The position numbers and the translations under genes were made by a program. A stretch of DNA of 64,000 nucleotides, taken from the NCBI RefSeq assembly GCF_050320075.1, contig NZ_CP190018.1, one strand, 5' to 3'. This document shows positions 18,428 to 43,520 of this stretch, piece by piece (positions within the stretch are counted from its first letter, which is position 1; the number at the start of each line of letters is the position of its first letter). The notes beneath the pieces are model-generated. The model worked only from the letters and a program-made list of their open reading frames with translations. It was not told the DNA's origin and did no database searches. Origin of the DNA: Escherichia coli. GTDB taxonomy: Bacteria > Pseudomonadota > Gammaproteobacteria > Enterobacterales > Enterobacteriaceae.

Positions 18428-19346
18428 ATTTAGCCATGTCAGCAAACTGTTCGGCGCACAAAAAGCCGTTAACGATCTCAATCTCAATTTTCAGGAGGGG
18501 AGTTTTTCGGTGCTGATTGGTACATCAGGCTCCGGTAAATCCACCACCCTGAAAATGATTAACCGCCTGGTGGAGCATGACAGCGGCGTGATCCGCTTTG
18601 CCGGAGAAGAAATTCGCTCGCTGCCAGTGCTGGAGTTGCGCCGCCGGATGGGCTATGCCATTCAATCTATTGGCCTGTTTCCCCACTGGAGCGTGGCGCA
18701 AAATATTGCCACCGTGCCGCAATTACAAAAATGGTCGCGGGCGCGGATTGACGATCGTATCGACGAATTAATGGCGCTACTGGGGCTGGAGCCAAATTTG
18801 CGTGAGCGTTATCCGCATCAGCTTTCTGGCGGTCAGCAGCAACGTGTGGGAGTGGCGCGCGCACTGGCTGCCGATCCGCAAGTCTTACTGATGGATGAAC
18901 CTTTTGGCGCGCTGGACCCGGTAACGCGCGGCGCGTTGCAACAAGAGATGACGCGCATACACCGTTTGCTGGGGCGTACCATTGTGCTGGTCACTCATGA
19001 TATTGATGAGGCGCTACGACTGGCAGAACATCTGGTGTTGATGGATCACGGTGAAGTGGTGCAGCAGGGCAATCCGCTGACGATGCTGACTCGTCCGGCG
19101 AATGATTTTGTCCGCCAGTTTTTTGGGCATAGTGAACTGGGTGTCCGCCTGCTTTCGTTACGTAGCGTGGCGGATTACGTGCGTCGCGAAGAACGGGCAG
19201 AAGGTGAGGCGCTGGCAGAAGAGATGACTCTACGCGATGCGCTCTCCCTGTTTGTCGCGCGGGGATGCGAGGTGCTGCCGGTGGTGAACACGCAGGGCCA
19301 GCCTTGCGGCACGCTGCATTTTCAGGATCTGCTGGTGGAGGCGTAA
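18420..19346 (+). CDS. yehX: ABC transporter ATP-binding protein YehX
   Basis: Walker [13 protein letters not shown] signature LSGGQQQRV, Walker B LLMDEP. Confidence 0.9.
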
Positions 19347-19350
19347 ACGT

Positions 19351-20082
19351 ATGAAGATGTTGCGCGATCCGCTGTTCTGGCTCATTGCTCTGTTTGTGGC
19401 GCTGATTTTCTGGCTGCCTTACAGCCAGCCGCTGTTTGCTGCCTTGTTCCCACAACTGCCACGACCCGTTTATCAGCAAGAAAGTTTTGCTGCTCTGGCA
19501 CTGGCTCATTTCTGGCTGGTGGGAATTTCGAGTTTGTTTGCGGTGATCATTGGCACTGGTGCAGGAATTATTGTTACTCGCCCGTGGGGCGCGGAATTTC
19601 GCCCACTGGTGGAAACTATTGCCGCCGTTGGACAGACTTTTCCGCCCGTCGCGGTGCTGGCGATTGCCGTTCCGGTGATTGGGTTTGGTCTGCAACCCGC
19701 GATTATCGCCTTGATCCTTTATGGTGTGCTGCCCGTCCTGCAGGCAACACTTGCCGGGCTGGGAGCGATTGATGCCAGCGTGACAGAAGTTGCGAAAGGT
19801 ATGGGAATGAGCCGTGGTCAGCGACTGCGTAAGGTCGAGCTACCGCTGGCGGCTCCGGTGATTCTGGCGGGCGTGCGAACTTCGGTGATTATCAACATTG
19901 GTACGGCGACGATCGCCTCAACGGTAGGGGCCAGCACGCTGGGTACGCCGATCATCATCGGGCTTAGCGGATTTAATACCGCGTATGTGATCCAGGGGGC
20001 GTTACTGGTGGCACTGGCGGCGATCATTGCAGACCGCCTGTTTGAAAGGCTGGTGCAGGCGCTTAGCCAGCACGCAAAATAA
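19351..20082 (+). CDS. yehW: ABC transporter permease YehW
   Basis: 243-aa polytopic permease [31 protein letters not shown]... Confidence 0.9.
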
Positions 20083-20170
20083 AGGTATAACCTGCGAGCA
20101 TGACGCCACCAATTCCGCCTAACGCCATAAACAGGAACAGGGCGATGACCCCAATTTTAGCTATGCGCAT
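20063..20170 (-). CDS. yohO: 35-aa small membrane protein YohO (not in ORF track)
   Basis: Hand translation: [35 protein letters not shown]; ATG 20168-20170; 3' end overlaps yehW 3' end by 20 bp on opposite strand. Confidence 0.7.
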
Positions 20171-20229
20171 AATGCACTCCTTATGTTAACGAAAGGATTG
20201 TACAGTAAAGCGCATTTGTTAACGAATCA

Positions 20230-20961
20230 TTAAATGCCGAGTGGGAAAATATCATGGCCTTGTTCCTGCCAACTGGTGAGTTGCTGCTGTTGGGCGGAGG
20301 TTCGATTTTCACCGCACCACACCAGCAATGTACGGCCTTCGAACAGTTCAGGGCGTAGTTGATTGAGCGAGTGGGCGAGGACATCAATGCGCCATCCTTG
20401 TTGACTGGCAATCCAGCCCTCCAGCCACAGACGGGTGGTATCATGAATATTCCAGCCAACCACCAACGCATCTTTACCCTGTTTTTTACGTGCCGAAGCC
20501 AGGCAAATGGCGATGTAGTTGATCAGTACGCCGTCGAGGATCGCCAGCAGCGCCTGGAGAGTCGGTTGTTGGCACTGAAGTCGTCGGCGCAGAGGAATAA
20601 ACAGATGTGTGGTGAGCGTCTGGGCGGGGTAATCCTGACCGCGCTCTTTGATCCACGTTCGCAGGCTATGCAGATTGCCGCTTTGCAGGTAAGTCAGTAA
20701 TGTTTCTTGCTGATCGCGCCAGCCGTTCTGCACATCAACATTTTCATTACTGAGCAGCATTTTAACTTTGCTGACCTGCACGCCGTTGTCGATCCAGCGT
20801 TTGATCTCGCGGATCCGGTCAATATCGGCATCGTTGAACAGCCGATGGCCGCCGTCTGTCCGTTGCGGTTTCAGCAATCCGTAACGCCTCTGCCACGCGC
20901 GTAACGTGACAGGGTTAATATCACAAAGCAACGCCACTTCACCAATTGTGTAAAGCGCCAT
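20230..20961 (-). CDS. mlrA: MerR-family transcriptional regulator MlrA (csgD activator)
   Basis: 243-aa ORF MALYTIGEVALLCDINPVTLRAWQRRYGLLKPQRTDGGHRLFNDADIDRIREIKRWI (MerR HTH). Confidence 0.9.
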   Translation of the reverse strand: MALYTIGEVALLCDINPVTLRAWQRRYGLLKPQRTDGGHRLFNDADIDRIREIKRWIDNGVQVSKVKMLLSNENVDVQNGWRDQQETLLTYLQSGNLHSLRTWIKERGQDYPAQTLTTHLFIPLRRRLQCQQPTLQALLAILDGVLINYIAICLASARKKQGKDALVVGWNIHDTTRLWLEGWIASQQGWRIDVLAHSLNQLRPELFEGRTLLVWCGENRTSAQQQQLTSWQEQGHDIFPLGI

Positions 20962-21182
20962 CGTCTCACCCTTGCTCGCGAGGTCCCGGTTTAACTTTAG
21001 ACGCAGTTTTGCGAACCAGGTAGTTTTGCCCGTTTTTTGTGCATCTATAGGGTGATTTTATTTTTGCCAGGCGATTTTGAGTGATCGTACTCACGAATTC
21101 TCATTTTTCTGCAAGAGTTCAAAGAAAGTTAAACGCAGGCAATGTATGTTACGCGTTTTAAAGGGAAGTGTGGTTTGCGGGT

Positions 21183-22868
21183 ATGTACGATTTTAATCTG
21201 GTGTTGCTGCTGCTTCAGCAGATGTGCGTTTTTTTAGTCATTGCGTGGTTAATGAGTAAAACGCCATTATTCATACCGTTAATGCAGGTCACGGTTCGTC
21301 TGCCGCATAAATTTCTCTGCTACATCGTCTTTTCCATCTTCTGCATCATGGGCACCTGGTTTGGGTTGCACATTGACGATTCTATTGCCAATACCCGTGC
21401 GATAGGCGCGGTAATGGGCGGCTTACTCGGCGGTCCGGTCGTCGGTGGGCTGGTTGGTCTGACCGGCGGGTTACATCGATATTCGATGGGGGGCATGACC
21501 GCGCTAAGTTGCATGATCTCGACCATCGTTGAAGGGTTGCTCGGCGGCCTGGTACACAGCATCCTGATCCGTCGCGGGCGCACTGATAAAGTCTTTAACC
21601 CCATTACCGCCGGTGCCGTCACGTTCGTCGCTGAAATGGTGCAAATGTTGATCATCCTGGCAATCGCCCGACCTTATGAAGATGCGGTGCGTCTGGTGAG
21701 TAATATTGCTGCGCCAATGATGGTCACCAATACCGTCGGCGCGGCGCTGTTTATGCGTATATTGCTCGATAAACGCGCGATGTTTGAAAAATACACTTCG
21801 GCTTTTTCTGCCACTGCGCTAAAAGTGGCTGCCTCGACGGAAGGCATTTTGCGCCAGGGGTTTAACGAAGTGAACAGCATGAAAGTGGCACAGGTGCTGT
21901 ATCAGGAGCTGGATATTGGTGCAGTCGCGATTACCGATCGAGAGAAATTGCTGGCCTTTACCGGAATTGGTGACGATCACCATTTACCCGGCAAACCGAT
22001 TTCTTCGACTTACACCTTAAAAGCGATTGAAACCGGTGAAGTGGTCTACGCTGATGGCAACGAAGTACCTTATCGTTGCTCTTTGCATCCGCAATGCAAA
22101 CTGGGGTCGACGCTGGTAATTCCGTTGCGTGGTGAAAATCAGCGGGTGATGGGTACCATCAAATTGTATGAAGCCAAAAACCGTTTATTCAGTTCAATCA
22201 ATCGCACGCTGGGTGAGGGGATTGCGCAACTGCTTTCGGCGCAGATCCTCGCCGGGCAATATGAGCGGCAAAAAGCGATGCTCACCCAGTCAGAGATCAA
22301 ACTGCTTCACGCCCAGGTGAACCCCCATTTTTTGTTTAATGCGCTTAACACCATTAAAGCGGTGATCCGCCGCGACAGCGAACAGGCCAGCCAGCTGGTG
22401 CAGTATCTTTCCACTTTTTTCCGCAAAAACTTAAAGCGGCCTTCGGAGTTTGTTACTCTCGCCGACGAAATTGAACATGTGAACGCTTATCTGCAAATTG
22501 AAAAGGCGCGCTTCCAGTCGCGGTTGCAGGTCAACATTGCTATTCCGCAAGAATTATCCCAGCAGCAATTGCCCGCGTTTACCCTGCAACCGATAGTGGA
22601 AAACGCTATTAAACATGGGACATCACAACTGCTGGATACAGGGCGAGTGGCAATCAGCGCCCGACGTGAGGGGCAACATTTGATGCTGGAGATCGAAGAC
22701 AACGCCGGTTTGTATCAACCGGTAACCAATGCCAGTGGGCTGGGGATGAATCTGGTGGATAAGCGTTTACGTGAACGGTTTGGCGATGACTATGGGATAA
22801 GCGTCGCCTGTGAGCCTGATAGTTACACCCGAATAACGTTACGACTACCATGGAGGGACGAGGCATGA
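21183..22868 (+). CDS. btsS: LytS-family sensor histidine kinase BtsS (YehU)
   Basis: ATG 21183; N-terminal multi-TM 5TMR-LYT domain, GAF-like region, His-kinase box [16 protein letters not shown]; overlaps btsR by 4 bp. Confidence 0.9.
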
Positions 22869-23584
22869 TTAAAGTCTTAATTGTCGATGATGAGCCGTTA
22901 GCACGGGAGAACCTGCGCGTATTTTTGCAGGAGCAGAGCGATATTGAAATCGTTGGAGAGTGTTCAAACGCCGTGGAAGGGATCGGCGCGGTGCATAAAC
23001 TGCGCCCGGATGTGCTGTTTCTTGATATCCAGATGCCGCGCATCAGTGGTCTGGAAATGGTGGGGATGCTCGACCCGGAACATCGTCCGTATATCGTTTT
23101 TCTCACCGCGTTTGATGAATACGCCATTAAAGCCTTTGAAGAACATGCTTTTGATTATCTGCTGAAGCCAATTGATGAAGCGCGACTGGAGAAAACGCTG
23201 GCGCGATTGCGTCTGGAGCGCAGCAAGCAGGATGTTTCGCTGTTACCGGAAAATCAACAGGCGCTGAAATTTATCCCTTGTACGGGGCATAGTCGGATTT
23301 ATTTGCTGCAAATGAAAGATGTAGCATTTGTCAGCAGTCGGATGAGCGGTGTCTACGTTACCAGTCACGAAGGGAAAGAGGGCTTTACCGAATTGACATT
23401 ACGTACCCTGGAGAGTCGTACACCACTACTACGCTGCCATCGTCAGTATCTGGTTAACCTCGCGCATTTACAGGAGATTCGTCTGGAAGATAACGGCCAG
23501 GCCGAGTTGATTTTGCGTAATGGCTTAACCGTGCCGGTCAGCCGTCGTTATCTGAAAAGCTTAAAAGAGGCGATTGGCCTGTAA
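22865..23584 (+). CDS. btsR: LytTR-family response regulator BtsR (YehT)
   Basis: ATG 22865; receiver domain [17 protein letters not shown]...LDIQMP; C-terminal LytTR DNA-binding domain. Confidence 0.9.
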
Positions 23585-23630
23585 AAGACTGCTAAAATGG
23601 CTTTTTGCCTCATCAACACCTGAAGGCCTC

Positions 23631-24101
23631 ATGCTAAGTAACGATATTCTGCGCAGCGTGCGCTACATTTTGAAAGCCAATAATAATGACCTGGTGCGTA
23701 TTCTGGCGCTGGGTAATGTCGAAGCCACCACGGAACAGATCGCCGTCTGGCTACGTAAAGAAGACGAAGAGGGTTTTCAGCGTTGTCCGGACATTGTTTT
23801 GTCTTCCTTCCTCAATGGCCTGATTTATGAAAAACGCGGCAAGGATGAGTCTGCTCCGGCACTGGAGCCGGAACGTCGCATTAATAACAACATCGTGCTG
23901 AAAAAATTACGCATCGCGTTTTCGCTGAAGACCGATGACATTCTGGCGATCCTCACCGAACAGCAGTTCCGCGTTTCGATGCCGGAAATTACGGCGATGA
24001 TGCGTGCACCGGATCATAAAAACTTCCGCGAATGCGGCGATCAATTTTTACGTTATTTTCTGCGTGGACTGGCAGCGCGCCAGCATGTGAAGAAAAGCTA
24101 A
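23631..24101 (+). CDS. yehS: DUF1456-family protein YehS
   Basis: ATG 23631 gives 156-aa MLSNDILRSVRYILKANNNDLVRILALGNVEATTEQIAVWLRKEDEEGF... Confidence 0.85.
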   Translation: MLSNDILRSVRYILKANNNDLVRILALGNVEATTEQIAVWLRKEDEEGFQRCPDIVLSSFLNGLIYEKRGKDESAPALEPERRINNNIVLKKLRIAFSLKTDDILAILTEQQFRVSMPEITAMMRAPDHKNFRECGDQFLRYFLRGLAARQHVKKS

Positions 24102-24142
24102 GACGGGTATGGCGGCCATGCAAAAACATGGCCGCCGACAGA

Positions 24143-24604
24143 TTATTTCACTTCTTTAAAACCAGCGGCTTTCATCACCAGTTCCATTTGCGCCATAGTG
24201 ATACCTTTTTTGGCATCTTCAGCAGAAACGTTGATTCCTGAAATACCCTGCAGGGCTTTGAAATCCACTTTTTCCATATCGATAGTCACGTTTTCCTGCG
24301 CGTAGGTATCGGTATAGGTTAATTTTTCTTCAACACCCGCGATGTTTTTGTATTTGGCGCTTAACGGCTCAAGTGTCTTGGCAGCATCTTCTTTGGTGGT
24401 TGCACCAATGGAGGCAAATTGAATTTTGGTTTCAGAAGATTGCTTAAGCACCTTGTCACCTTTGTAGACATAGGTAATGGCAATTTCAGTACCGTTCAGA
24501 TTGGCGCTGAATTTTTTCGATTCTTCTTTGTCACCGCAGCCAGCAAGAGAGAAAACCAGAACAGATGCAACAACGAGGGAAAACAGCTTATTGAAAGCCT
24601 TCAT
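24143..24604 (-). CDS. yehR: DUF1307 lipoprotein YehR
   Basis: ATG 24602-24604; lipobox MKAFNKLFSLVVASVLVFSLAGC. Confidence 0.85.
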   Translation of the reverse strand: MKAFNKLFSLVVASVLVFSLAGCGDKEESKKFSANLNGTEIAITYVYKGDKVLKQSSETKIQFASIGATTKEDAAKTLEPLSAKYKNIAGVEEKLTYTDTYAQENVTIDMEKVDFKALQGISGINVSAEDAKKGITMAQMELVMKAAGFKEVK

Positions 24605-24728
24605 GTAAAACTCCATTTTATTTAATCAAGAAACTGGTGACTCTCACCAGGAGCTATATAGGATATGCCTAATACCGTGACGTGAGCAGTCCGGAACTGG
24701 AGTAGAACTCTTAGTAAAAAGCACTATT

Positions 24729-26729
24729 TCATCCTTGTTGCTGAAGCATGGGGAATAATTGTTCGCAAAGTAAAACACCGTTATTCATTGCTTCTACCCG
24801 TGCCTCGCTTTCTGTATTACGAAATTGTGCCAACACATGTGCCAGCCGATAAAAAACCACCGCGGTGAGGTCATTCGCCAGCAACTCTGCCTGACCAATA
24901 GCACTCTGTTCCTGATAGCGCCAGCCGTTATGGAGCAGTTGAATAAGTAACGCCTGGCAGCGCATCAGCAACTGATGAGCGGTAGACGGCACAGGCAAAA
25001 CGCTGGCAGAAGGTAGCGGTGCCACAGGCGCAGTTTCTGCGTCCAGCGCCCAGGCGCGGGTTTTGGTCATCATTACCCGTGGTTCCAGTGTCAATTGCCC
25101 CTCTACAAAGCTGACAAAGCCAGAAACCAGACTCACGGGGTCGTCTGTTTGTTGCAAAAGCGCCGCCATGCGTTCAACGGCAAAAGGAGAACAGGCAGAT
25201 GCCGGAAGGGATAACGTCAGCAGATTATCTTCACCTTCGCCGCTGATTACCTGCGCGTCCAGCGTCTGGCGGCTGCTATCCCAACCGAGTGAAATACACT
25301 CAGCGACTGGCAGAATAAATAAGTTATCCACCTGATTAAGAGGCCGTATGCAGGCGGGGGGACGCTGGCGTAAATATTCACGCAAAGCCACAATGCCCGG
25401 CTGGCGCAACGGCGCACTCAACATTTGCCAGGCGTCTGGCGACAGTGGAACAACACTACTCAAGCGGTTGCGGGTAGCTAACAGCAGCTCGCCATCGGCA
25501 CTGCGTTTTGCTGCTTGTGAAACAATTTGCCCACCAGCCAGTGCGCCAGCCTGAAAACTAAACAGCCGACGCGTCGCTGCCGGTGAGTTTTCCTGTTCGC
25601 TTCTCGGCCAACTACGCGAAAGATGCAAAATACTGCCGGTGTCGGGATCGGTAAACCAGATGCGTAAACCATACTGCTCAATATCCTGCCAGCAACGCAT
25701 ACCTAAAGACACCAGCCGCAGATGATCAAGCTTTGCTTCTCCGGCAATGCCAGCGCCAACGACCGTGCGCCACGGCATGGGAGGAACTTCACCAACACTG
25801 TCGCGCCGGGCCATCTCTTGTGCACAATTTAATCGATTGTTTAATGCCGCAAGCTGACGTAAGCATTCTCCGGCATGATAGTGGCTGGCGCGGGCGTGGA
25901 AGGCATCAACGCTGGCGCGCAGTTGCCGTAGCGATTCACTCACCCAGCGCCAGTTGCAGCGTTCCGCCGCTTGCTGCGCGCGGCTGAAAGCAGCCTCGTA
26001 ATGAATAAGCGGCTGGCTGATGCCGCCAAGCCATAACGCCTGGCTTAATTGCTGAACATATTGACGACACGCGTCCCCCTCATCGTTGGCAAACGGATCG
26101 TCAGATGATGTGACGTGTTCGCTGCGCATCTGCCAGATTAAATGAGTAAATTCCGCTTGCTGCGCTTTGGCCTGGACAAAGGCCTGTACTGCCAGTACGA
26201 CATGTTCGCAAAGTGTTCCTTCAATACAATCACAGCGAGCGAAACGAATGCTGCTGCGGGAATAAAAACGTACATCGCTCATCGGTAAGCGGGCAGAGGG
26301 AATTTCGCTCGGCGTACAGAACAACTCAATGGTGATGCCTTTAGCGACCAGTGCCTGTGCGCGTTTGCGGGTGGCATCGGGCAGGGTAGCCAGTTCTTCC
26401 AGCCAGATTGCCGGATCCCACTCTTCTTCTTTTTCCGTAGTCTGGGTGGTGGCGCAAAGTCGCTGATAACTTAAAACCAGCATCACGCGATGGCGGCACA
26501 TGCCGCTGGCCCCGCAGCTGCACTGAGCCTCTTTCAGTGCCTGACCGTTCGCCAGCTGGGTACGGACACCGTCACTGAAGGTGGCGATTAAAGCGCCGTT
26601 CTCATGGCTGATCTCCGGGACGTTGCCATTTTCCAGTTCCTTAAGACTGCGCTTAACAAAACCGGCATTGCTTAACGCTGTCAGGGCCTGCGGTGTCAGT
26701 TCTAATAATTCCGGACGTAGTGAATTCAT
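24729..26729 (-). CDS. yehQ: SWIM zinc-finger domain protein YehQ (two CxCx5CxH motifs)
   Basis: ATG 26727-26729 (MNSLRPELLELTPQ...); motifs CSCGASGMCRH and CDCIEGTLCEH seen in translation; start overlaps yehP stop (ATGA). Confidence 0.85.
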   Translation of the reverse strand: MNSLRPELLELTPQALTALSNAGFVKRSLKELENGNVPEISHENGALIATFSDGVRTQLANGQALKEAQCSCGASGMCRHRVMLVLSYQRLCATTQTTEKEEEWDPAIWLEELATLPDATRKRAQALVAKGITIELFCTPSEIPSARLPMSDVRFYSRSSIRFARCDCIEGTLCEHVVLAVQAFVQAKAQQAEFTHLIWQMRSEHVTSSDDPFANDEGDACRQYVQQLSQALWLGGISQPLIHYEAAFSRAQQAAERCNWRWVSESLRQLRASVDAFHARASHYHAGECLRQLAALNNRLNCAQEMARRDSVGEVPPMPWRTVVGAGIAGEAKLDHLRLVSLGMRCWQDIEQYGLRIWFTDPDTGSILHLSRSWPRSEQENSPAATRRLFSFQAGALAGGQIVSQAAKRSADGELLLATRNRLSSVVPLSPDAWQMLSAPLRQPGIVALREYLRQRPPACIRPLNQVDNLFILPVAECISLGWDSSRQTLDAQVISGEGEDNLLTLSLPASACSPFAVERMAALLQQTDDPVSLVSGFVSFVEGQLTLEPRVMMTKTRAWALDAETAPVAPLPSASVLPVPSTAHQLLMRCQALLIQLLHNGWRYQEQSAIGQAELLANDLTAVVFYRLAHVLAQFRNTESEARVEAMNNGVLLCEQLFPMLQQQG

Positions 26730-27862
26730 GACTGAAGATTCTCCGCAAGCCATGATGCCAGCTCGCCCGGTGTCATGGCGGCTATTTGTGCGCCGACATT
26801 AACCAGCGCCTGGGCCGTATCGTGGTCATAGCAAGGTGTTGCGGTGCTATCGAGCGCCGCCAGTCCCAGCACTTTGATGCCGCTCTGGACACACTTTTTC
26901 ACCTGATGCGTCAGTAATGATGATGAACCCCCTTCGTAAAAATCGCTCACGAGGATAATGACGCTTTTCGCTGGTTGTTCAATAAGTTGCCGACCATATT
27001 CCATGGCACTGGCGATATTGGTTCCGCCGCCTAATTGCACTTTCATTAATAACTCTACCGGATCGGCAACGTCTGCCGTGAGATCAACCACGCTGGTGTC
27101 AAACGCCACCAGATGGGTACGAATACCGGGTAACTGCCATAAACAGGCCGCCATCACCGCTGAGTGGATCACCGAGTCAACCATCGATCCGCTTTGATCA
27201 ACCAGTAAGACCAGTTGCCATTGATCGCTATGGCGCTTAATGCGGCTGTTAAAGCGGGGGGATTCGATATACAACTTGCCGTGTTGCGGATGCCAGTGTT
27301 GCAGGTTGGCACGCAGCGTACTTTTGAAATCGAAATTACGCGCCAGTGGAATAAATGAGCGACGGCGGCGATCGCGGACACCAGAAAAAGCCTGGCGAAC
27401 TTCCTTTGCCAGTCGCGCCATAATCTCTTCAACAACCTGGCGCACTATCCGGCGAGCGGCAGCCAGCACTTCGGGATTCATCAGATGTTTGGTGTGCAAA
27501 ACGGCGCGTAGCAGGCTTTCAGAAGGCTGCATACGTTCCAGTACGTCGAGATTCGTCACCACATCTTCAATGCCATAGCGCAGCACGGCATCGCTTTCCA
27601 GCCGCTCGATCACCTGTTGCGGAAACAGCGTGTGAATACTGTTGATCCACTCAGGGGTGGTGAGATTTGAGCAACCTAATCCACCGGAGCGTTCACCACG
27701 CTGGAGCCGTTCAGGATCGCGCCCATACAGCCACTCCAGCGCGTGGTCTATCTGCCGGGCATTGTCATCCAGCCCACAAAGGGTCGTTTCTGCCGCTTCG
27801 CCAAGAATTAATCGCCAGCGTTGTAGCTCACGGGTGGTCAGAAGATCGTTCAGTTCAGACAT
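26726..27862 (-). CDS. yehP: von Willebrand factor A (VWA) domain protein YehP
   Basis: ATG 27860-27862 (MSELNDLLTTRELQRW...); MIDAS motif DQSGS in LLVDQSGSMVDS; overlaps yehM stop by 8 bp. Confidence 0.85.
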   Translation of the reverse strand: MSELNDLLTTRELQRWRLILGEAAETTLCGLDDNARQIDHALEWLYGRDPERLQRGERSGGLGCSNLTTPEWINSIHTLFPQQVIERLESDAVLRYGIEDVVTNLDVLERMQPSESLLRAVLHTKHLMNPEVLAAARRIVRQVVEEIMARLAKEVRQAFSGVRDRRRRSFIPLARNFDFKSTLRANLQHWHPQHGKLYIESPRFNSRIKRHSDQWQLVLLVDQSGSMVDSVIHSAVMAACLWQLPGIRTHLVAFDTSVVDLTADVADPVELLMKVQLGGGTNIASAMEYGRQLIEQPAKSVIILVSDFYEGGSSSLLTHQVKKCVQSGIKVLGLAALDSTATPCYDHDTAQALVNVGAQIAAMTPGELASWLAENLQS

Positions 27863-30134
27863 GGAAAACTCCCCAGTGTTGCAGCGATGCCAGTGCCTGC
27901 TGTTCGAGTTGTTGATGATGTGCAATGGCTTGCGGTGGACAATGCAACGGCATTTGCAGTGCCGAAACGGGAAGTTGCGCCAGTTGATAATGCTCAAACA
28001 CCTGATGCGCCAGCGTCCCGCGTTCTCGTGGTGGTAGCCAGGCCATCGCCGCGCGTAAATCGGGCAGGGCGTTAATAAAATCGTCGTTACTCAGTTGATT
28101 TAAATGACTACTGAAACCGGCGATAAATGCCGGCTGACAGGCCAGTTGATGGCGGGCCAGCGCCAGCAAACCGTGCAGCGCTTCGCCGGATTGTGCCGGG
28201 GATAATTGCGCCAGCATTGTCAGCGCCGCTTCGGCACTGGCGTTGGGATGTTCCAGACGCATTAGTGCGCCAAGAGCCGCGCCGCGATCCAGCGCCGGGG
28301 CATGAATCGCCTGACTGCGGCGCTCCAGTAAGGCTACCGCCGCAGAAAGCGAAACGCCGGGTAAATTAACGCCGCTATGTAGATCGCGCAGGATATGGCA
28401 AAGCGCCTGCCAGCTATGCAGGTGAGCGTGAAACTCCTTTTCCTCCGGTTTGCCGTTGGATTCACACAGCCAGAGTGTGCGATCGATAGCCGCGCATAAC
28501 GTCGTCTGCAATATCTGCGCGCCTTGCATACCGCTGATTTCATCTAACCGCCATAAGGCATATAGCACTTCCAGCGCCTGGCCCATTTCGGCAAATTGAT
28601 TTTCCTGGGCGATTAATAATGTAAGTTGCTCCAGTAATTGTTGACTGAAAGACGCCAGACCCGCTAACGCCGCCTGGCTAAGACATGTGGTGATGATGCT
28701 GATTCCACCCGCGTCCAGCATATCGGCTTCTAATTTATGGCGTGCGGCTTCCTGGAGTGTGGCACCAAAGCAGGCGGCCTCAATCAATGCCGCATGCTGG
28801 CTAAGCGGGCGGGTTAATTTCCAGCATTCTTCACCGTTGCCTGCAAGTGACAGTGTACTTCCCTGCTGGCGCACAACCCCTGGGATCTCCAGTATTGCCA
28901 ACCGATGTAACACCTGACTTTGCGCCAGTCCATCGGGGGTAAAGCGATTTAAGGTAAGCTCCGCCGGAAGAGAGATTCCGGTACGTTCCAGTTCGCAGGT
29001 GACATCTTTTGGCAGAGGCGGTTGTGGCGTAGAAGGGGCAAGTTTACCGAATCCGTCACCCGCTAATGTGTCTATCAACGTTAGCAGAATCGGATCGGTA
29101 TCGGGATGAATAACGCCGCGATAGCTCCACGGCAACGGCGCGTTCAAGGCTTCTTTAATCAGCGAGCCTGCTATGGCATCCAGCCAGTCAGTGCGTAACG
29201 GTAGTGTATGACCGCGCAACTGTGCCAGCGCCATCGCATGCAGATGAGCGGCAGCCATATCAGCGGTAGAAGCGGGCAATTTGTGCTGGCGCAAACGGGT
29301 AAGGATAGTTTTTAGCAGTTGTTCACCGGCCTGCTGTAGGCCCCACTGCCAGCACCAGTTTTGCCAGACCGGGGCAGGCATACCAGAAAGGTATCCTGCC
29401 AGCACATCAAGGCGCTTTTCACTGTAGGGGGTGAGATAACAACCTGTAACGGCATCTGCCAGCTAGGGCAATTCCGGCGTGTTAATTTCCTGCGTGTATT
29501 CGCGCCACATCTTTGCCAGTGCCGGAGCATGCCAGCCGCCGCAGACGACTAACACGTCGCCATTGTTTTGCTGCATCGCCCATCCAATCCAGCGGGCCAT
29601 AAAGGCTTCGCGCTGACGATTGAGGGCATCTCCGGGGGAATCGCCCCGCAGTTGTGCAAAATAGTGCGCCAGCGCAGAGGGTAATGCAGTTTGCTGGCTT
29701 TCATCTTCGAACAAGTGATCCCACAGGGTGTCGCTGTTATCCATGCGGGTGGCACGCAGCAGTAAGGTCTGGCTGTCATCTTGCGTATCGGGTGATTCGT
29801 CTTCTTCTTCACTCTGCGCCCAGCAAGGCAAATCGATGAAGTAAGTTTGTGCCTGAATACGACGTGCGGCTTGTAGCGCCTGCCACTCCGGCGAAAATTC
29901 AGCAAATGGCGTCCAGGCACCACGCCCGGGGGCTGCACCGTCCTGATACTGGCAATAACTGTAAATAGCTACCGGAAGCTGGTGGGCTAAAAACAGTTCG
30001 TCTACCCGGTCATTAAAATCAGCCGGGCCTTCAATCAACACGTATCGTGGCCGCTGGCTTTCGATTAACGATTTCACCAGCCGGGCGCAGGCCGGACTAT
30101 GATGCCGGATGCCGACAATTAACGGCTCGCTCAT
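27855..30134 (-). pseudogene. yehM: yehM (759-codon frame) interrupted by a single in-frame TAG at 29463-29465
   Basis: ORFs 29463..30302 and 27855..29405 are in the same frame; codon-by-codon read gives ...INTPELP-stop-LADAVTGCYLTPYSEKRLDVLAGYLSGMPAP...; start MSEPLIVGIRHHSP at 30132-30134 with GAGGA RBS 10 bp after yehL stop. Confidence 0.75.
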
Positions 30135-30144
30135 GCATCTTTCC

Positions 30145-31222
30145 TCACGGCAGGCGGTGGCGGGCTTGATAATAAGCCTGCCAGTGAGCTTCTTTATGTG
30201 TGGCGACACGCTGTTCGAAGTAACGGCGCAGACGCGCGCGATCTTCTTCGTTATCTTTAACGATGGTTCCGGCAATACAGTCCACCAGATCGGCTGGCTC
30301 ACCTGCGCGATTCGCTAAAAACCAGGCGCGGACGCCCACTGCGTGGGCCACGTTCACGGCTTCAGCGGTGGATATAATTGCCGTCAGAGTATCCATTGAC
30401 GTTTTCTTTTCGCCGTTGGCACGCAGATCGCGGAAGGTGCGGACCAGTAACTCCAGTACCGCGTCAGGCACTTTATGCGGAATACCGCTATGGGCCAGCA
30501 AACGCGCCGAAGCACTGGCGACCAGTTCCAGCTCCTGGGCGAAATCCATAATCGGAAAGACGGTTTCAAAATCGAAGCGACGCTTTAGCGCGGCACTCAT
30601 CTCATTGACGCCGCGATCGCGGGTATTGGCAGTGGCAATAATATTAAAGCCTTCCCGCGCATAGAGCTGACTGGCTTCACCGGTGAGTTCCGGCACCGTC
30701 ATCACCCTGTCAGAAAGCATACCTAACAGACAGTCTTGTACTTCCAGCGGTGTACGCGTTATCTCTTCAAAACGGACGATTTTGCCGTCGCGCATTCCCT
30801 GGTAAAGCGGGGCAGGGACCAGTGCTTCCGTAGACGGACCATGGTTGATAAGCAGGGCGTAGTTCCATTTGATCTTCAGTAGTAGATGCGCCGCCCTGGA
30901 TGGTTAACCCGGCATCGCCGCTAATAGCGGTTGCCAGTAATTCAGACAGGAGAGATTTTGCGGTGCCCGGTTCCCCCACCAACATCAAACCGCGCCCGGT
31001 GGCAAGAGTGACTAACATACGTTCGACAGCGGAGGGACTAATCACCACTTTACGGCTAATATTTTGCGCGCTATCGCCAAGGATAAAAGCACGGGCCGCA
31101 GGCAAACTTAACTGCCAACCGGGCGGGCAAGGTGCGTTATCATTTTGTTTTAATTTTGCCAGTTCATCGGCGTATAACACAGCAGCAGGCGGACGCTGCA
31201 GATGATTATTCTGCGGTGACAT
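30145..31222 (-). pseudogene. yehL: yehL, MoxR-type AAA+ ATPase, split by a frameshift into two overlapping frames
   Basis: N-terminal frame ([12 protein letters not shown]...Walker [11 protein letters not shown]...GGASTTEDQ) ends at 30767; C-terminal part (…[41 protein letters not shown]…ATANTRD…) is in another frame bounded upstream by a stop at 30904-30906; total span 1078 nt is not a multiple of 3. Confidence 0.75.
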
Positions 31223-31338
31223 ATATTCATCCCTGAAATGTATTAATGAAATAAACGATATTTTACGCGCAATAAATGTTTGGCGCATTAGTTGTTTGAG
31301 CGAAAAATATCTGGAAAGCAGATCACAGTAAATAAAAA

Positions 31339-31365
31339 AACCTGCTGGTGAGGCAGGTTCTTTTA
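31339..31365 (-). terminator. Hairpin flanked by A7 (left) and T4 (right); reads as strong intrinsic terminator for minus-strand transcripts
   Basis: AAAAAAACCTGCTGGTGAGGCAGGTTCTTTT; rc gives stem followed by U7. Confidence 0.5.
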
Positions 31366-31445
31366 TTTACTATTTTCAGGCCCAACACCGCAGCCTGTGC
31401 AACATCGTGTTCCAACGAACGAATTATAACCATCGGTGGACCCCG

Positions 31446-31473
31446 TTGCAATTAAGATAATGAGATTTATAAT
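31446..31473 (+). promoter_or_regulatory. Candidate sigma70 promoter TTGCAA-N16-TATAAT upstream of small ORF
   Basis: -35 TTGCAA at 31446-31451, -10 TATAAT at 31468-31473, 16-bp spacer. Confidence 0.4.
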
Positions 31474-31654
31474 CCAGACGGTTGGGACGTTGCGCCGGAT
31501 CGGACCAATTTTAAGTCCTGGCTACCGGACGGGTGGTGCTGCAGGTGGTGCCCTGATCCGGAGTGCAACATCGTGGTCCAACATACGTAAACCAGTATCG
31601 ACAGGCAGTGTAAGGGTAAGGTGCTGGTGTTGCGCTCCTTAATAAGGAGAGCGG

Positions 31655-31744
31655 ATGGACACGCTGACACAAAAGTTAACCGTGCTCATTGCCGTACTGG
31701 AGCTATTAGTGGCTCTGTTACGGTTGATTGATTTGTTGAAGTAA
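31655..31744 (+). CDS. Candidate 29-aa small hydrophobic/amphipathic protein (unnamed; not in ORF track)
   Basis: AAGGAGA Shine-Dalgarno 7 nt upstream of ATG 31655; translation MDTLTQKLTVLIAVLELLVALLRLIDLLK; followed by hairpin terminator. Confidence 0.35.
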   Translation: MDTLTQKLTVLIAVLELLVALLRLIDLLK

Positions 31745-31765
31745 TGGGCAAATTGAAACGCATCT

Positions 31766-31790
31766 AAGGGGGAATACCGTTTCCCCCTTT
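31766..31790 (+). terminator. Hairpin AAGGGGGAATACCGTTTCCCCCTTT after the small ORF and immediately beyond yehK stop
   Basis: 7-bp G/C stem, then TTT AATAAA. Confidence 0.4.
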
Positions 31791-31797
31791 AATAAAG

Positions 31798-32118
31798 CTA
31801 TTTTTCTATTTCTTGGTTGAATATATTCTGTAGTTCGGGATTAAAAATGGCTATTACCGTTTCTGGTGATTCGCCCCGTAATTTTCGCTCATCAATAAAC
31901 TCATCTCTTATATAAATCAACGCATCATTTATTAGCGGGTCGACATCCTCTCGATCACGTTGATGAAATGTTGGATGTAGCCGGAATCGCTCCAGTCGGT
32001 AGACGGAACCTGTAAATAATTCAGAGCATTTATGGATCTCAAGTCTGAAGGAAAACGGATCTTCAGGTACAGGGACCTCATAATCGTAAATAGCAACCAG
32101 CTCTTTTTGCACGATCAT
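31798..32118 (-). CDS. yehK: Uncharacterised small protein YehK
   Basis: 106-aa ORF MIVQKELVAIYDYEVPVPEDPFSFRLEIHKCSELFTGSVYRLERF...; ATG verified. Confidence 0.85.
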   Translation of the reverse strand: MIVQKELVAIYDYEVPVPEDPFSFRLEIHKCSELFTGSVYRLERFRLHPTFHQRDREDVDPLINDALIYIRDEFIDERKLRGESPETVIAIFNPELQNIFNQEIEK

Positions 32119-32178
32119 CGCTTTTCCCGGTGGCAGGTCGTGTTAATAACGGGCAGTCGCATCACTGCCCGCTGTGTT

Positions 32179-35100
32179 TTAATGGAAAATGACGTCGGGT
32201 GCGCTTAACGCTTCACTCAAATCAAACACATCAAGTTCGGCAAAAGTGACAGATTTATTGTCACGGTATACATGAAGAGAACGGAAGCTCATTAGCGCTT
32301 TGCTATCAACATTGTAGTGGTTAAAACCGGATGAAAACTTAAGGACCAGCCGGTACTCGCCCAGGTCATAGACAAATGCATTCTCATAGCCTGACTCCCA
32401 GCCTTTGTATCGCATTCCCATAAGTTGCCCAACGGTAGCAGATTTACCTTCCCAGCGATTCAAACTATTACTGGCTGACTCGTCAGGCGTGAGCAGTACT
32501 GTGCGCCGTGCCAATTGGCGAAAAGGCGGCATAATTTCGTAATCGGCAAAAAGCTGTGCAAACTCACTGCGCATTTCTGCTGCCATTTCTAACGGGTGGG
32601 CAATGCCAATCAGAGCATCGGCAGGCAGGTCAATTGGCTCATCTTGCTCATTGCAGAACTCCCCCTCAGCGGCCACACGAAAGGCGTTGAGTAAACGACG
32701 CGGTTCATTTGCCGGATAAACACCCCATATTAATCGCTGAGTAACCAGACGGGTAAAGGGATGATTAACAAACAGAGAATGAAAATCTGCCAGCGACCAG
32801 CGTCGGGTGGTGCGCAGGGCAGTTTCAAGACGCGGGAGCAGGTTTTTGCTCACCTGAGTGGCATCTTTTTTTAGCCCTTTTAGTCGGGCCAGTGCCTCGG
32901 GTGCTTTCAGTTGATCGTCATCGGCGCGCAACCGGGGAACGCTTTTCTGGCGAACGTTTTGCTGATCAAAGATAACCGGGTTAAGGTTTTCATCGAAGCG
33001 AACGGTAAATTGCCGTGGACCAAAATCAAAAATCAACGCCTGCGGATCATCAAGACCCAGTGTTGGGACTAATCTGTCCGCTAACTGTTCCTGGCTTAGC
33101 CCTCGATTTTCTGCGACCACCTGAAGAAATTCCGCCGCGTTATCACGTAAGGGGCGGGATTTCGCCCGTTGCGATATATGATGCAGCTGTATCAGTGCCA
33201 TATCATTATTCATCTGAGTAAGTATGTTCAGGCCGCTGACGGCACGGGCAGATTTGCCTTCCTGTGGCCAGGCAAGGATCTGTGTCGTCAGATCCCGTGC
33301 CGTGCTTTCGTCGCCAAAGAGACTTAACGCCAGAAATGCCCAGTTGTCTTTTGCGGGAGCACCAGCTTGTTGCCACGCGGTGAAAAGATCCCAGGCAAAA
33401 GCTGCCAGCGTTTGCGGCTGGCAGAAAGTTTTCAGTTGTTCCAGTCCGCTATAAAAACGTCCGCCCTGGGTAAAGCGCAGCATTTCGCCGATAATTTCCA
33501 GTGCGTCATCGGTAACAGGCTGATTATTCGTGATAAGGCGCGGCCTGGACCACATTGCCGGCTGCCAGAAATCAGGGGCTTTTGGAATGCGTGTCGGGTA
33601 AATCTCTATTGGACTCTGTTTAAGTAAATGCTCCAGGGCAGGCCATACATCTGTACGCTGCCAGCGGTTTGCCGCGGTTTGCAGCAATTCACCATGTCCC
33701 TGTTCGTAAAGTAAACGTAGGGCAAGTAATGCAGCTTCGCTATTATCGCTGGATTTGGTGAAGACAAGAGGGATAAGTGCAGTAGCCGTATGTTCCGGCC
33801 ATTGTAAAATCCACTGGCGAGCCAGATCACGCTGCGCCGCGAAACGTCGCCAGACGCGGGCAACGGGCAGGGCCAGTTCTGTTGCGCCAAAATTTAAAAT
33901 TAACGGAAATGTTTCTTTTGGACGATATGAAAAAGCCAACAGCAGACCTGGTAGAGCATCCAATCCGAAGATACTGAGAAAATAGTCCTCACCCGCGAAC
34001 AGATGCTTTTTCTCATTGATACGTAGCCAGAAAGTCAAAGCTATCTCACGCGGCAACTGTGCCAATAAATACAGGTTCCAGATACTCTTTTCCCGACGAT
34101 AGCGTGAGTAGCTGTCATTTTCCCATATGTTAATTAACACTTCTACGTGACCGCTGCGAAGCGCCTGTTCTGCTAATTGTGCTTCCGGGGAGTTCCAGCC
34201 ATTCAGGATCTCTTCAACCCGCCCCTGGTAGTAATGCCACTGAACAATGAGTGAATTGCGTGCAGCATCCAGTTTTCCGGGGAGTATATAATTCAGAAAC
34301 AGCCATACATCATCTCCAAAACCCAGCTCCTGTAGTACAACTCGTCCACTTTTATGTTCCATGCGTTCCGCAAGAGATTCCGTGCTGAAATAACGGGCAG
34401 ACTCAGTGGCGGCAAGCCTCTCTCGTTCGCCTGGTTGCCAGTAAACTTGCGGCGTTAATTCGAACGGTGCCAAATCAAGACGTGGAACTGTCATTTTTTT
34501 CTTACTACGCCACGGTGGTGAAACGAGGATTTCAGGCATTTGGCTGTTATCGGTGCTATCAATAACCGTTTTAGGCGGTGCCGATAAATAACTATTCAGC
34601 ACTGACCGGGCTTGAGTACTTAACCACGGCATCACCTCTTCTGCCAGTTGTGGCTGCGATGCCATCAGCGTTTGTAACAGCGTACGCCAGTATTCATCAC
34701 GTGCTTTTTGCTGTGCAGGCAGCTTTTTGTCTTCGATGATTGGATAACCAGGGCGCGTAGGTGGTTCTTTTAGCGCCAGCAGTTCTGCCAGTGCGGCAAG
34801 CGTCGCATGGGGGAAATTTTTACTGTATTTAGCTACACGTTGCAGGCTGGGTTTGTTTTTATCAGCAACTAACAGCAGGGTGCGGATGACCTGCGGATGG
34901 TTAATTTGTACCAGCAGACTGCCGCAATCTTCTTTATGGGCATACATTGCCAGGCGTGGAACGGCTGCCAGTCCTTGTTCGCGCAAAAGGGCAGCGCAGG
35001 CCGCGTAGCCGAAGTGGTTTTCATGCGACATGTAGCTGGCTTCCCGATCGCTAAATATATCCTGGCTCCAGTAGCGTTCGAGTTTTCTCACCGCTCTGGG

Positions 35101-35811
35101 GTCAATAGCAACAACTTTTAACCACTCCTTAGAATGAAAATGAGTCCACGGGCATTCAAGGCTTACCAACTCATTGGCGATTTCTGGTTTTTCCGGGAGG
35201 ATCAGAGCAATAAAAGGGCGGCGAACTTTGGTTATTCCTGGCAGTGCGGCAATGAGTTTGTCGGCGCAACGCTGCCAGCTGCTTTCCTCTGCCAGAGAGA
35301 GATGCTTACGCAGTCGGAGATCGAATTCGTTATAGGTTTCTGATCGATAACCATAGCCATAATCCTCGTTCTGATACTGCAATGTCACTAGCAGAGGATC
35401 ACTTTCATAACATCGTGTAATAAACTGGCGTGCAATCACCACCTCAGTCGCATATTCCAGTCCCTCTTGTTGGACGATTTCGTCGAGCAACTGTTGGCTA
35501 TCATTTTGCGCGATACAGGCTAGCGCCGCCATTGTCCGGGCCGGAACTGAGGGTTTGTGTTCGCCAATCAAGTTGATGGCCTGCGTAATGGCCGACTGCC
35601 ACTCCAGTGAAAAATTTTCATAACGCCAGACAATGTTTTTTTTCTTCTCAGCTTTTTGTAGCAATTCATCACCCAGTGTCTGGATGAGGCTTTCAGTGAT
35701 AACAGGCACCGGTTCGCCCGGCCAACTGCGATGGCTGAGCGGCGTTTTGCCTTTTTTATATTTCAGTTCCACTTGGGCGTTATCCGCCAGCCACGGTAAT
35801 TCCTTGTCCAT
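32179..35811 (-). CDS. yehI: Giant MolR-family protein YehI (1210 aa, DUF4132-like, no N-terminal WGR domain)
   Basis: MDKELPWLADNAQVELKYKKGK...; shares blocks with the two upstream paralogues (RKHLSLAEES.WQ.C..KLIAA.P, LDFGPRQFTV, RLIWGVY, LFADYE..PPFRQL); ATG 9 bp downstream of preceding gene stop. Confidence 0.9.
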   Translation of the reverse strand: MDKELPWLADNAQVELKYKKGKTPLSHRSWPGEPVPVITESLIQTLGDELLQKAEKKKNIVWRYENFSLEWQSAITQAINLIGEHKPSVPARTMAALACIAQNDSQQLLDEIVQQEGLEYATEVVIARQFITRCYESDPLLVTLQYQNEDYGYGYRSETYNEFDLRLRKHLSLAEESSWQRCADKLIAALPGITKVRRPFIALILPEKPEIANELVSLECPWTHFHSKEWLKVVAIDPRAVRKLERYWSQDIFSDREASYMSHENHFGYAACAALLREQGLAAVPRLAMYAHKEDCGSLLVQINHPQVIRTLLLVADKNKPSLQRVAKYSKNFPHATLAALAELLALKEPPTRPGYPIIEDKKLPAQQKARDEYWRTLLQTLMASQPQLAEEVMPWLSTQARSVLNSYLSAPPKTVIDSTDNSQMPEILVSPPWRSKKKMTVPRLDLAPFELTPQVYWQPGERERLAATESARYFSTESLAERMEHKSGRVVLQELGFGDDVWLFLNYILPGKLDAARNSLIVQWHYYQGRVEEILNGWNSPEAQLAEQALRSGHVEVLINIWENDSYSRYRREKSIWNLYLLAQLPREIALTFWLRINEKKHLFAGEDYFLSIFGLDALPGLLLAFSYRPKETFPLILNFGATELALPVARVWRRFAAQRDLARQWILQWPEHTATALIPLVFTKSSDNSEAALLALRLLYEQGHGELLQTAANRWQRTDVWPALEHLLKQSPIEIYPTRIPKAPDFWQPAMWSRPRLITNNQPVTDDALEIIGEMLRFTQGGRFYSGLEQLKTFCQPQTLAAFAWDLFTAWQQAGAPAKDNWAFLALSLFGDESTARDLTTQILAWPQEGKSARAVSGLNILTQMNNDMALIQLHHISQRAKSRPLRDNAAEFLQVVAENRGLSQEQLADRLVPTLGLDDPQALIFDFGPRQFTVRFDENLNPVIFDQQNVRQKSVPRLRADDDQLKAPEALARLKGLKKDATQVSKNLLPRLETALRTTRRWSLADFHSLFVNHPFTRLVTQRLIWGVYPANEPRRLLNAFRVAAEGEFCNEQDEPIDLPADALIGIAHPLEMAAEMRSEFAQLFADYEIMPPFRQLARRTVLLTPDESASNSLNRWEGKSATVGQLMGMRYKGWESGYENAFVYDLGEYRLVLKFSSGFNHYNVDSKALMSFRSLHVYRDNKSVTFAELDVFDLSEALSAPDVIFH

Positions 35812-35820
35812 GCTCTTTCC

Positions 35821-38800
35821 TTATTCAAACAGGGCTTCAATATCGTTAATGAGTTCGCTGGCGGTGATGTCGTCGAGCACGGAGAACTGCGCTTCCTGAG
35901 TTGAATTACTCCCCCAGCCATAGCTTTCCGCTTTGCCTTCCCATAGCCACAGCTTGCTTAAGACCTGCTCAGCGCTAAGATCGGCTGGTGACATACCCAC
36001 CGCAAAACCTTCGTCGATTTCCATGATTAACGACCAGCGACCGAGAGGTTTGATCATCCATCCGATCCAGCCTCCATCCTGTGGTTCGCCCTTTATCCAG
36101 CCTTTATTTGCCAGCCCCATGACCCGGCCGCTCGGGCATTTTCTGCCTGCCCAGCGGGTCAGTTCGCTGGCGTTGCGCTCGGCTTCTGTCAGGGCGTAAC
36201 TGTTACGTTCAAGCTGACGGAACGGTGGTAGCAGTTCGTAGTCGGCAAAAAGCTGACCAAAGGCGACAGCATCCGTCGGTGATATTTCCAGAACGTGAGG
36301 AATGCCAACAGAGATATCGCCTTCCTGCAAGGTGAAAAGATCATCGTCAGCGGTGCTGTAGCTGTTATCTTCCGCCACCCTAAAGCACGCCTGTAGCTGG
36401 TTTTCGGCGCTATAAACGCCCCAAATCAGACGGCGGGTTAAGTGACGAACCAGCGGATGCTCAACCAGGAAGAGCTGAAAGTTTTCCGGCGACCAGCGGC
36501 GGCGCAGGCACATGGCGGATTCCAGCCTTGCTACCTGCTGGGCGGCGACGGTACGCGCATCTTTTTTCAGCAATTTGTAGCGGTTAACAGCATCGTTTGC
36601 CTGTGATTCATCATCGCTTTTATTGGGTTTAGGTAAGTCTTTCAGGCGGCTGCCGGAAACATCGCGCACAAACGGTTTTAAGGTTTCATCAAAGCTGACG
36701 GTGAACTGCCGTGGGCCAAAATCCAGCAGCAGCGAACCGTTATCATCCAGACCGAGAGCCGGTGCTAACCGATCTTCAAGCTCCGCTACCGTCAGTTCGC
36801 GACTTTCGGCAATGTCGGCAATTTTCTCTTTCGCCCGCTCCTGTAATGCTTTGAATTTCAGTTTCTGGGCAATGCCGTTAAGCTGCATCAGGGCGATATC
36901 ACTACTGATAGCGGCGAGGATATCCAGCCCGACGGTGGCGCGTTTATGCTGGGATTCACCAGGCCAGGCGCGTATTAATGGCGTCAGTTTGCGGGCGGTG
37001 TCATCGTTACCGAGAACGCCTAACGCAGTGAACGCCCAACTCTCTTTCGACGGCGCGCCAGCGGTCTGCCAGGCGGTAAACAGATCCCAGGCAAATTCAG
37101 CCAGTGAGTCGGCGGTACAGGCATCTTTCACCTGCAATAATCCCGGATACAGCGCCTCCTCCTGATGGAAGCGGAGCATTTCACCGAGGTGCTGGAGTGC
37201 GCTATCGGGCAGTGATTGGGCATTTGCTTTTAATACCGGGCGGGTCCAGATCGATGGCTGATAAAAGGCCGGAAGAGTGGGGATTTTTGTCGGGTGATTA
37301 TCTAAGGGATCGAGCGCAAGCATAGCGTTCACCGCATCTGTTACTTCCGGCTGGTTATAACGCCGGGCGATTTCTTGCAGTAATGGTTGATGACCGTTTT
37401 CGGTAAGCATACGCAATGCAGCGCGGGCGTTATCCTGTGCTTCACCGGCTTTGCCGAGCGCCGCAGACAGCAGGCCGGTAATGGCGTGTTCCGGGTATTT
37501 CAGCAGCCAGGTGCGGGCGTCTTGTCGTAGGGTTTTGAGTTTGTTGAAGGCGCGGGCGACGGCAGGTGCCAGCTCACTCGCTGCGAAGTAATTCGTTATG
37601 GGCAAGGCTTCCTGTGGATAGCGTGCAAGTGAGTTTACTAACCCAGGTAATCCTTTGAGTCCAAAATGTAACATGGCGTATTCGGTATCGGTATGCGGAG
37701 ATAGAGTAAGGGCATTCCATGCTCTTACTGCTTTCTCCAGCGGCAATGTTGTCAAAATCCCCAAATGCCAATAATGCCCGGTAGGTGAATGAAACACCTT
37801 AAATTCACTTATTAAAGTTGAATAATCTTCATTTAGCCATGCCTCAACTACCGCTTCGGGAGCTTTAATATATGTACCAGCGATCCGTCGTTGAAAACCC
37901 ATCCTTGCCAACAGATTGGCAGTACTTTCTTCATGACTAACCGTGATGTGTTTTGAATACCAGATATATTTCGCCAAAAGTTGATTACTGATTTCTTCTG
38001 TCAGATAACTGATTGGCTCAATACCTAATGGTGCTAAATCAAGCACTGGAATCGGCGATTTTTTCTTTTTCGAAAGCCATGGTGGGGAGACTACTATGGC
38101 CGGCAGTAGATCGGCGCTGGCATGGTTTGAGGGCTGTGTCAGTTGTTGCTGGCATGATTTCAGCACTGCAACTGCGGGTGTCGAAAGCCAGGGAATGACC
38201 TGTTCTGCTAGTGTCGGTTGCGAGATAAGCATCGTCATTAGCATAATGCGCCAACTATTCTCTTCTTTTTGCACTAGAAGTTCCGCCAGTGCTGCCAGTG
38301 CTGCGTGTGGGAACGCAGCGCAGGCTTTCGTCATTCGATCGTGACAGCGTTTAGTATGCCCTGCTACACGTATAAGCAGTGTTAATGCGAACGGATGATT
38401 GATATGACGCAACACATCGGCGCAGTAGTCACTTGCGACATAGGGAGCAAATCGGGGCAGGGCCGCAACACCTTGCTCCTGTAATACGGTGGCTGACCAT
38501 ATCGCACCACAATAGTAATCATCAAAAATGGCATATGGCTCGTGATATTTTTCTAATGAGGCAAGAATGTGCTCATCAGTCGCCACTATTTTTAGCCACT
38601 CCAGCGAGGGTAATTTCTTTTGCCCCAGTAGACGCTGGGCAATTTCATGTGCAATTTCTGGTTTTTCGGGCAATAACAAAGCAATTAATGGTTGCCGCCA
38701 TTCTGGAATATGTGGAACTGCGGCAATAAGTTTTTGTGCACATTTTTGCCAGAGAGACTCTTCCGCCAGTGATAAATGTTTACGTAGGCGTAATTCAAAG

Positions 38801-39615: not shown

Positions 39616-39627
39616 TGCAAAGTCCTT

Positions 39628-43425: not shown

Positions 43426-43520
43426 TCTGCATCCCTGTAATTTTATCCAGTTGAATGCTGATGCTACCAGTATTTATGCGGGTTAGAGAGAGACAAAATC
43501 GCAAGAAAACAACTTTAGGA

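Follow-up and report, generated by a model that had tools for sequence, protein, structure and literature searches.

A nonsense mutation in yehM and a frameshift in yehL on a 25-kb block shared by unrelated Escherichia coli backgrounds

Analysis of a 64,000-nucleotide stretch of Escherichia coli DNA (contig NZ_CP190018.1; hereafter the window) revealed that codon 224 of yehM is TAG in place of the serine codon TCG. We consider this change, with a probability of about 0.93, to be an inherited nonsense mutation that has made yehM a loss-of-function pseudogene and that is carried together with a frameshift in the adjacent gene yehL on a block of 25 kb. The case is one of ordinary gene decay and is already recorded by RefSeq in near-identical genomes. 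The coordinates of the features are listed in Table 1.

Direct reading of the minus strand gave ...GAA TTG CCC TAG CTG GCA GAT..., with the TAG at window positions 29465-29463, in agreement with the first-pass annotation, which had described a single in-frame TAG splitting a 759-codon yehM frame. Translation of 30134-27855 produced 760 codons with one internal stop, at codon 224 (...EINTPELP-stop-LADAVTGCYL...), and the frame ends with TGA at 27857-27855. In the list of open reading frames the gene appears as two entries in the same frame, 29463..30302 (the N-terminal part, closed by the TAG) and 27855..29405 (516 amino acids, from an internal GTG). A chance juxtaposition of open reading frames is ruled out because the whole frame is colinear and gapless relative to the 2,280-bp yehM of K-12. 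The native start of yehM is preceded by the Shine-Dalgarno motif GAGGAAAG. When codon 224 was set to serine, the protein matched the Pfam family DUF5682 (PF18934) with E=1.7e-98 over residues 20-715, covering positions 1-695 of the 727 in the model. The stop at residue 224 falls inside this one domain, and the part of YehM beyond that residue would on this evidence be essential for function.

Table 1. Coordinates in the window of yehM and its parts, the neighbouring cluster genes and the shared block
Feature	Position	Strand	Remarks
yehM pseudogene (DUF5682 family)	27855..30134	-	759 codons plus terminal TGA; the amber codon is the sole lesion
Amber codon TAG, codon 224 of yehM	29463..29465	-	From TCG (Ser)
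Translatable N-terminal yehM fragment	29466..30134	-	223 aa, ends ...PELP; about 30% of the DUF5682 domain
C-terminal yehM remainder, untranslated	27855..29462	-	535 codons plus terminal TGA
yehL pseudogene (MoxR-type AAA+ ATPase)	30145..31222	-	11-bp deletion relative to K-12, giving a frameshift
yehP (vWA domain), intact	26726..27862	-	8-nt overlap between its start and the yehM stop
yehQ (SWIM zinc finger), intact	24729..26729	-	K-12 copy is an internal-stop pseudogene
yehK, intact	31798-32118	-	
yehI, intact	32179-35811	-	
WGR+DUF4132 gene, intact	35821-39615	-	
DUF4132 gene, intact	39628-43425	-	
Block with both pseudogenes, 25.1 kb	18245..43368		1 SNP relative to M217; both flanks about 1-5% different

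Comparison with other alleles identified the ancestral codon. Codon 224 was TCG (Ser) in all nine other E. coli yehM alleles examined, namely those of K-12 and of eight strains chosen to span the species' range of identity (BLR(DE3), ECOR29, JSWP006, CU37RT-2, UTME-2, WP4-W18-ESBL-08, M7638 and IR53017). Since these alleles all have TCG, the lesion is one change, a C-to-A transversion in the middle base of the codon, which corresponds to G-to-T at plus-strand position 29464. The ancestral codons proposed in the first-pass annotation (CAG, TGG or TAC) were therefore wrong, although its suggestion of a nonsense mutation inactivating yehM was borne out by these nine alleles and by the RefSeq/PGAP label of internal stop on identical sequence. 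The yehM of K-12 (b2120; WP_001294387.1; DUF5682) resembles the window gene in locus, in the synteny yehL-yehM-yehP-yehQ and in its length of 2,280 bp; the two are 96.4% identical in nucleotides, with 83 differences over 2,280 bp and no indels. The K-12 gene is, however, an intact open reading frame with TCG (Ser) at codon 224, whereas the window allele has TAG and 24 amino acid substitutions. When the window allele was paired with each of eight intact alleles, pN/pS was 0.12-0.15, which shows that yehM was under purifying selection until recently, for nearly its whole history. The level of polymorphism in yehM is unusually high for a chromosomal gene of E. coli; its alleles are 3.6-5.1% apart in nucleotides with pS of 0.10-0.14 but pN/pS of only about 0.13, and the intact allele nearest to the window haplotype shows only about 97% identity over 601 bp.

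The mutation is widespread among sequenced genomes. A search of 5,426 complete RefSeq E. coli genomes with the exact 61-mer centred on the TAG found it in 214 genomes, including the high-risk clone ST167, and the same 61-mer with TCG in place of TAG occurred in 206 other genomes. The carriers of the TAG 61-mer were sequenced independently by many laboratories and come from many hosts and countries. When TCG was restored in the 601-bp haplotype of the window, no exact match was found in the collection, the best matches being TAG carriers at 99.8%; the collection thus holds no intact sibling or revertant of this haplotype. yehM is annotated in RefSeq/PGAP as having an internal stop in all five carriers inspected (M217, 51008369SK1, 266917_2, E-1246 and MRSN346647).

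A second lesion lies immediately upstream, in yehL, from which the window and all five inspected carriers lack 11 bp present in K-12. Alignment to K-12 placed the junction of the yehL deletion between window positions 30868 and 30867, and about 215 genomes contain a full-length, exact 60-mer across this junction (414 gapped records subtracted from 629 with full coverage). The genomes with the yehL deletion coincide almost entirely with the yehM TAG carriers. RefSeq labels yehL as frameshifted in M217, 51008369SK1, 266917_2, E-1246 and MRSN346647, and in the annotation of M217 yehL and yehM are the only two genes flagged as pseudogenes in the corresponding 64-kb region. The inactivation of yehL was missed in the first-pass annotation. 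The yehL-yehM region shows zero differences among four carriers, which indicates that the inactivation is recent relative to the divergence of the alleles and that no secondary decay has followed.

The gene order in the window is the usual one for E. coli (metG, DUF4132, WGR+DUF4132, yehI, yehK, yehL, yehM, yehP, yehQ, yehR), and the position of yehM after yehL and before yehP/yehQ matches that in K-12 and in 10 other annotated E. coli loci. yehP, yehQ, yehK, yehI and both DUF4132 paralogues are intact in all carriers. Their intactness could mean that the inactivation is very recent or that these genes are still functional. The region 32179-43425 on the minus strand holds three tandem large DUF4132 paralogues of about 1,210-1,265 amino acids each. 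The paralogues share N-terminal segments of 200 bp that are about 88% identical, seen as repeats at 39413-39616 and 43223-43426. The copy number of DUF4132 genes is two to three depending on the strain, and the copy in E-1246 is recombinant or shortened.

Both pseudogenes sit on a block with a single SNP relative to M217, at window position 31838. The yehM pseudogene of M217 (B7R44_RS09025, internal stop) shows 0 differences over the gene and shares the yehL frameshift, but the genomic background of M217 differs from that of the window; the two match only within 18245-43368 and diverge by 1-5% in the flanks. Strains 51008369SK1 and 266917_2 have the block too, and E-1246 shares it only up to about window position 36 kb. 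M217, Sanji, WCHEC005237 and 51008369SK1 belong to ST167 (PMC7193042). The background of the window itself, judged from its sequence, is not ST167; the flank at window 43-49 kb is 100% identical to MRSN346647, Ecol_545, C1, SCU-109, FXCREC043 and Ec-U3. MRSN346647 has been assigned to ST-32 of phylogroup D and reported as unrelated to CC10 strains (PMC5404521). The block is thus common to ST167 (phylogroup A) and ST32-type (phylogroup D) backgrounds (PMC7193042; PMC5404521). Because unrelated backgrounds share it, the most economical account is homologous recombination that transferred about 25 kb, and the sequence comparison points to movement of the pseudogene-bearing block between unrelated lineages by recombination.

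Two mobile elements were observed elsewhere in the window. A 768-bp copy of IS1 with InsA and InsB frames occupies 1239-2006 at the 3' end of yeiS and is flanked by the 9-bp direct repeats AAACAATCA at 1230-1238 and 2007-2015; M217 lacks it. Between fbaB and gatY (about 62500-63210) lies an insertion of about 700 bp that encodes an IS200/IS605-type Y1 transposase (ORF 62596-63105, MGDEKSLAHTRWNCKYHIVFAPKYRR...) and that neither M217 nor MRSN346647 has.

Lesions in the yeh/DUF4132 cluster (window 24729-43425) are not confined to the window haplotype. The cluster is lesioned, independently, in seven of the 11 E. coli haplotype backgrounds sampled and is fully intact in the other four (CU37RT-2, BLR(DE3), ECOR29 and IR53017), although some of the frameshifts seen in a single genome of this sample may be assembly errors. 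The window haplotype carries the yehL frameshift and yehM S224amber, and K-12 carries a molR-type DUF4132 gene (molR/yehH) with a frameshift and an internal stop, together with an internal stop in yehQ. In M7638 two of the DUF4132 genes are pseudogenes, an IS disrupts yehI, and yehM has a stop at codon 510. The lesions in the remaining backgrounds are a yehI frameshift in JSWP006; a 1-bp deletion in yehM at nucleotide 1568 in UTME-2; a yehK frameshift in WP4-W18-ESBL-08; and a 4.25-kb deletion from yehI into yehM in YDC107. yehM has accordingly been hit in four ways (S224amber, the 1-bp deletion, the codon-510 stop and the 4.25-kb deletion). The K-12 pseudogenes of the cluster (molR/yehH and yehQ) are of the same type as those of the window, point nonsense or frameshift lesions in an otherwise conserved frame; K-12, however, keeps yehL and yehM intact, whereas in the window it is the DUF4132 genes and yehQ that have escaped damage.

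A literature search on the genes and families of the cluster found no functional study, only incidental mentions concerning H-NS, ST131 and Shigella sonnei. ST131 sublineage L1a carries a resistance transposon within the DUF4132 region (PMC9334617), and lineages 2 and 3 of Shigella sonnei have a 7-kb deletion that includes yehM and yehL (PMC12795559). Silencing of yehL and yehM by H-NS is indicated in K-12, since both genes are up-regulated in hns/stpA mutants (PMC3686432). A scan of seven cluster proteins against PADLOC-DB gave no matches, so the cluster fits no catalogued defence system. The NCBIfam scan returned nothing for YehM, YehP, YehQ and YehK, and YehL showed only sub-threshold AAA+ similarity to GvpN and MadB.

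Three readings would leave YehM, or its parts, functional. A sequencing or assembly error, the real codon being TCG and yehM intact, had been offered as one possibility in the first-pass annotation, and a single-base difference is the type of change that an error might give. The identical TAG 61-mer in 214 independently sequenced and assembled complete genomes refutes it; in addition, no genome has the 601-bp haplotype with TCG, and the change is a substitution rather than a homopolymer indel. We give this reading practically no credence: the TAG is a real, heritable nonsense mutation and not an artefact. A second proposal of that annotation, decoding of the amber codon by a suppressor tRNA (or, equally, by efficient readthrough) so that full-length YehM is still made, is extremely improbable. 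UAG followed by C is a comparatively weak (leaky) termination context in E. coli, and the base after the yehM UAG is C; a supD-type tRNA would give back the original serine, and the downstream part of yehM has gained no further lesions. Suppressor alleles were built from K-12 tRNA genes and searched as exact matches in the 5,426 genomes, the search covering supD, supE and supF out of a wider set of possible suppressors that includes leuX, trpT and plasmid-borne tRNAs. Within this scope, supF (tyrT with a CTA anticodon) was found in none of the genomes and supD (serU, CTA) in one, DSM 498; supE (glnV, CTA) was found in 155 genomes, fewer than the 214 TAG carriers, and among the matches listed all 40 were K-12-type laboratory strains or close relatives. 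The supD-type serU of DSM 498 lies at NZ_CP193717.1 2931840-2931929, where RefSeq annotates no feature, as is also the case for the supE alleles. Direct inspection of tRNA genes in one carrier, M217, and for supE only, showed wild-type anticodons in all four tRNA-Gln genes of the glnV/glnX cluster (two CTG and two TTG), and the 64-kb window holds no tRNA gene. The window gene resembles the amber alleles of laboratory supE44/glnV44, supF/tyrT and supD/serU backgrounds in having an in-frame UAG in a coding frame, at which a supD tRNA would put back the native serine, but it differs in that the carrier lineage has none of the suppressor alleles searched and shows no sign of decoding. The stop is also restricted to one haplotype, the other alleles examined having TCG, and yehL, the partner gene of yehM, carries a frameshift in these genomes, which leaves the module broken in any case. 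Programmed recoding is disfavoured because the stop is not conserved among alleles. Decoding of UAG as pyrrolysine was dismissed on the same absence of conservation and because, to our knowledge, E. coli lacks a pyl system. Low-level readthrough of the UAG-C may occur, but full-length YehM would, judging from these data, be absent in carriers. The third reading, a functional split gene in which the 223-residue N-terminal fragment and a re-initiated C-terminal fragment act as two subunits, is very improbable. Both halves are still open and unmutated, and a weak AGGA lies 16 nt before the ATG at codon 252. That AGGA is the only motif of its kind before any restart codon after the stop, and its spacing is too long to convince; the 20 nt before the GTG at 29405 hold no Shine-Dalgarno-like motif, as had been remarked for the 516-codon frame in the first-pass annotation. 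Moreover, all nine other alleles are single open reading frames, so orthologues do not encode two proteins here, Pfam DUF5682 spans the break as one domain, and PGAP calls the locus a pseudogene.

A different question is whether the loss was selected rather than neutral. Inactivation of yehL and yehM might have brought an advantage, such as the removal of a costly or self-toxic module of the MoxR-vWA type, and this advantage would be the reason why the doubly inactivated block recombined into unrelated, successful lineages. Such a reading draws on the adjacency of the two lesions, with no other pseudogene in the matching 64 kb of M217, on the presence of the block, with 1 SNP over 25.1 kb, in both ST167 and ST32-type backgrounds despite flanks that diverge by 1-5%, and on the cluster lesions in seven of 11 backgrounds, with yehM hit four separate times. 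Relaxed selection on an H-NS-silenced operon, however, predicts recurrent lesions equally (PMC3686432). The cluster is wholly undamaged in four of the 11 backgrounds, E. coli commonly recombines blocks of this size, on which the lesions may be passengers, and the caution about assembly errors in single-genome frameshifts applies here as well. We regard selected loss as unlikely. A bolder form of it, in which the yeh cluster (AAA+ YehL, DUF5682 YehM, vWA YehP, SWIM YehQ and two or three DUF4132 paralogues) is a cryptic and costly module of a conflict or defence-like kind, switched off repeatedly by E. coli lineages, the double knockout being selected and spread by recombination, is speculative and more doubtful still. 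The recurrent inactivation and the spread across lineages are adequately explained by relaxed selection on an H-NS-silenced operon.

Under the preferred reading, an inherited loss-of-function mutation, a single C-to-A transversion turned codon 224 of yehM from TCG (Ser) into TAG. Translation from the native start would then stop at codon 224 and yield at most a fragment of 223 residues, about 30% of DUF5682, and since translation ends within a single domain, yehM is taken to be a loss-of-function pseudogene. The fragment is probably non-functional. A C-terminal proline may slow termination and promote tmRNA tagging, and by analogy the ...Leu-Pro end of the fragment may have both effects. Beyond the stop, 1.6 kb of yehM mRNA would be left untranslated. 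The 8-nt overlap of yehM and yehP makes translational coupling of yehP probable, and with it polar effects of the nonsense codon in yehM; the untranslated mRNA together with this overlap would probably lead to uncoupling and to Rho-dependent polarity, and so to lower expression of yehP and yehQ. In that case the whole yehLMPQ module is likely to be functionally off. The yehM amber codon travels with the 11-bp deletion of yehL on the 25-kb block in about 214 complete genomes, including ST167 and ST32-type strains. The H-NS silencing in K-12 and the independent lesions of the cluster in many lineages are consistent with a dispensable module that is seldom expressed and is decaying because selection on it has relaxed.

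On its own the finding is of little consequence, since the pseudogene concerns a gene with no assigned function and is already flagged in public annotation of identical sequences. As a haplotype marker, the combination of yehM S224amber and the 11-bp deletion of yehL is clean and stable, is present in the carbapenemase-associated clone ST167 and in at least one unrelated background, and could help to trace recombination. The repeated and varied inactivation across E. coli shows that most conditions do not require the yehLMPQ/DUF4132 module. Functional work on these y-genes would need a strain with an intact cluster, for which K-12 is unsuitable because its molR and yehQ are pseudogenes.
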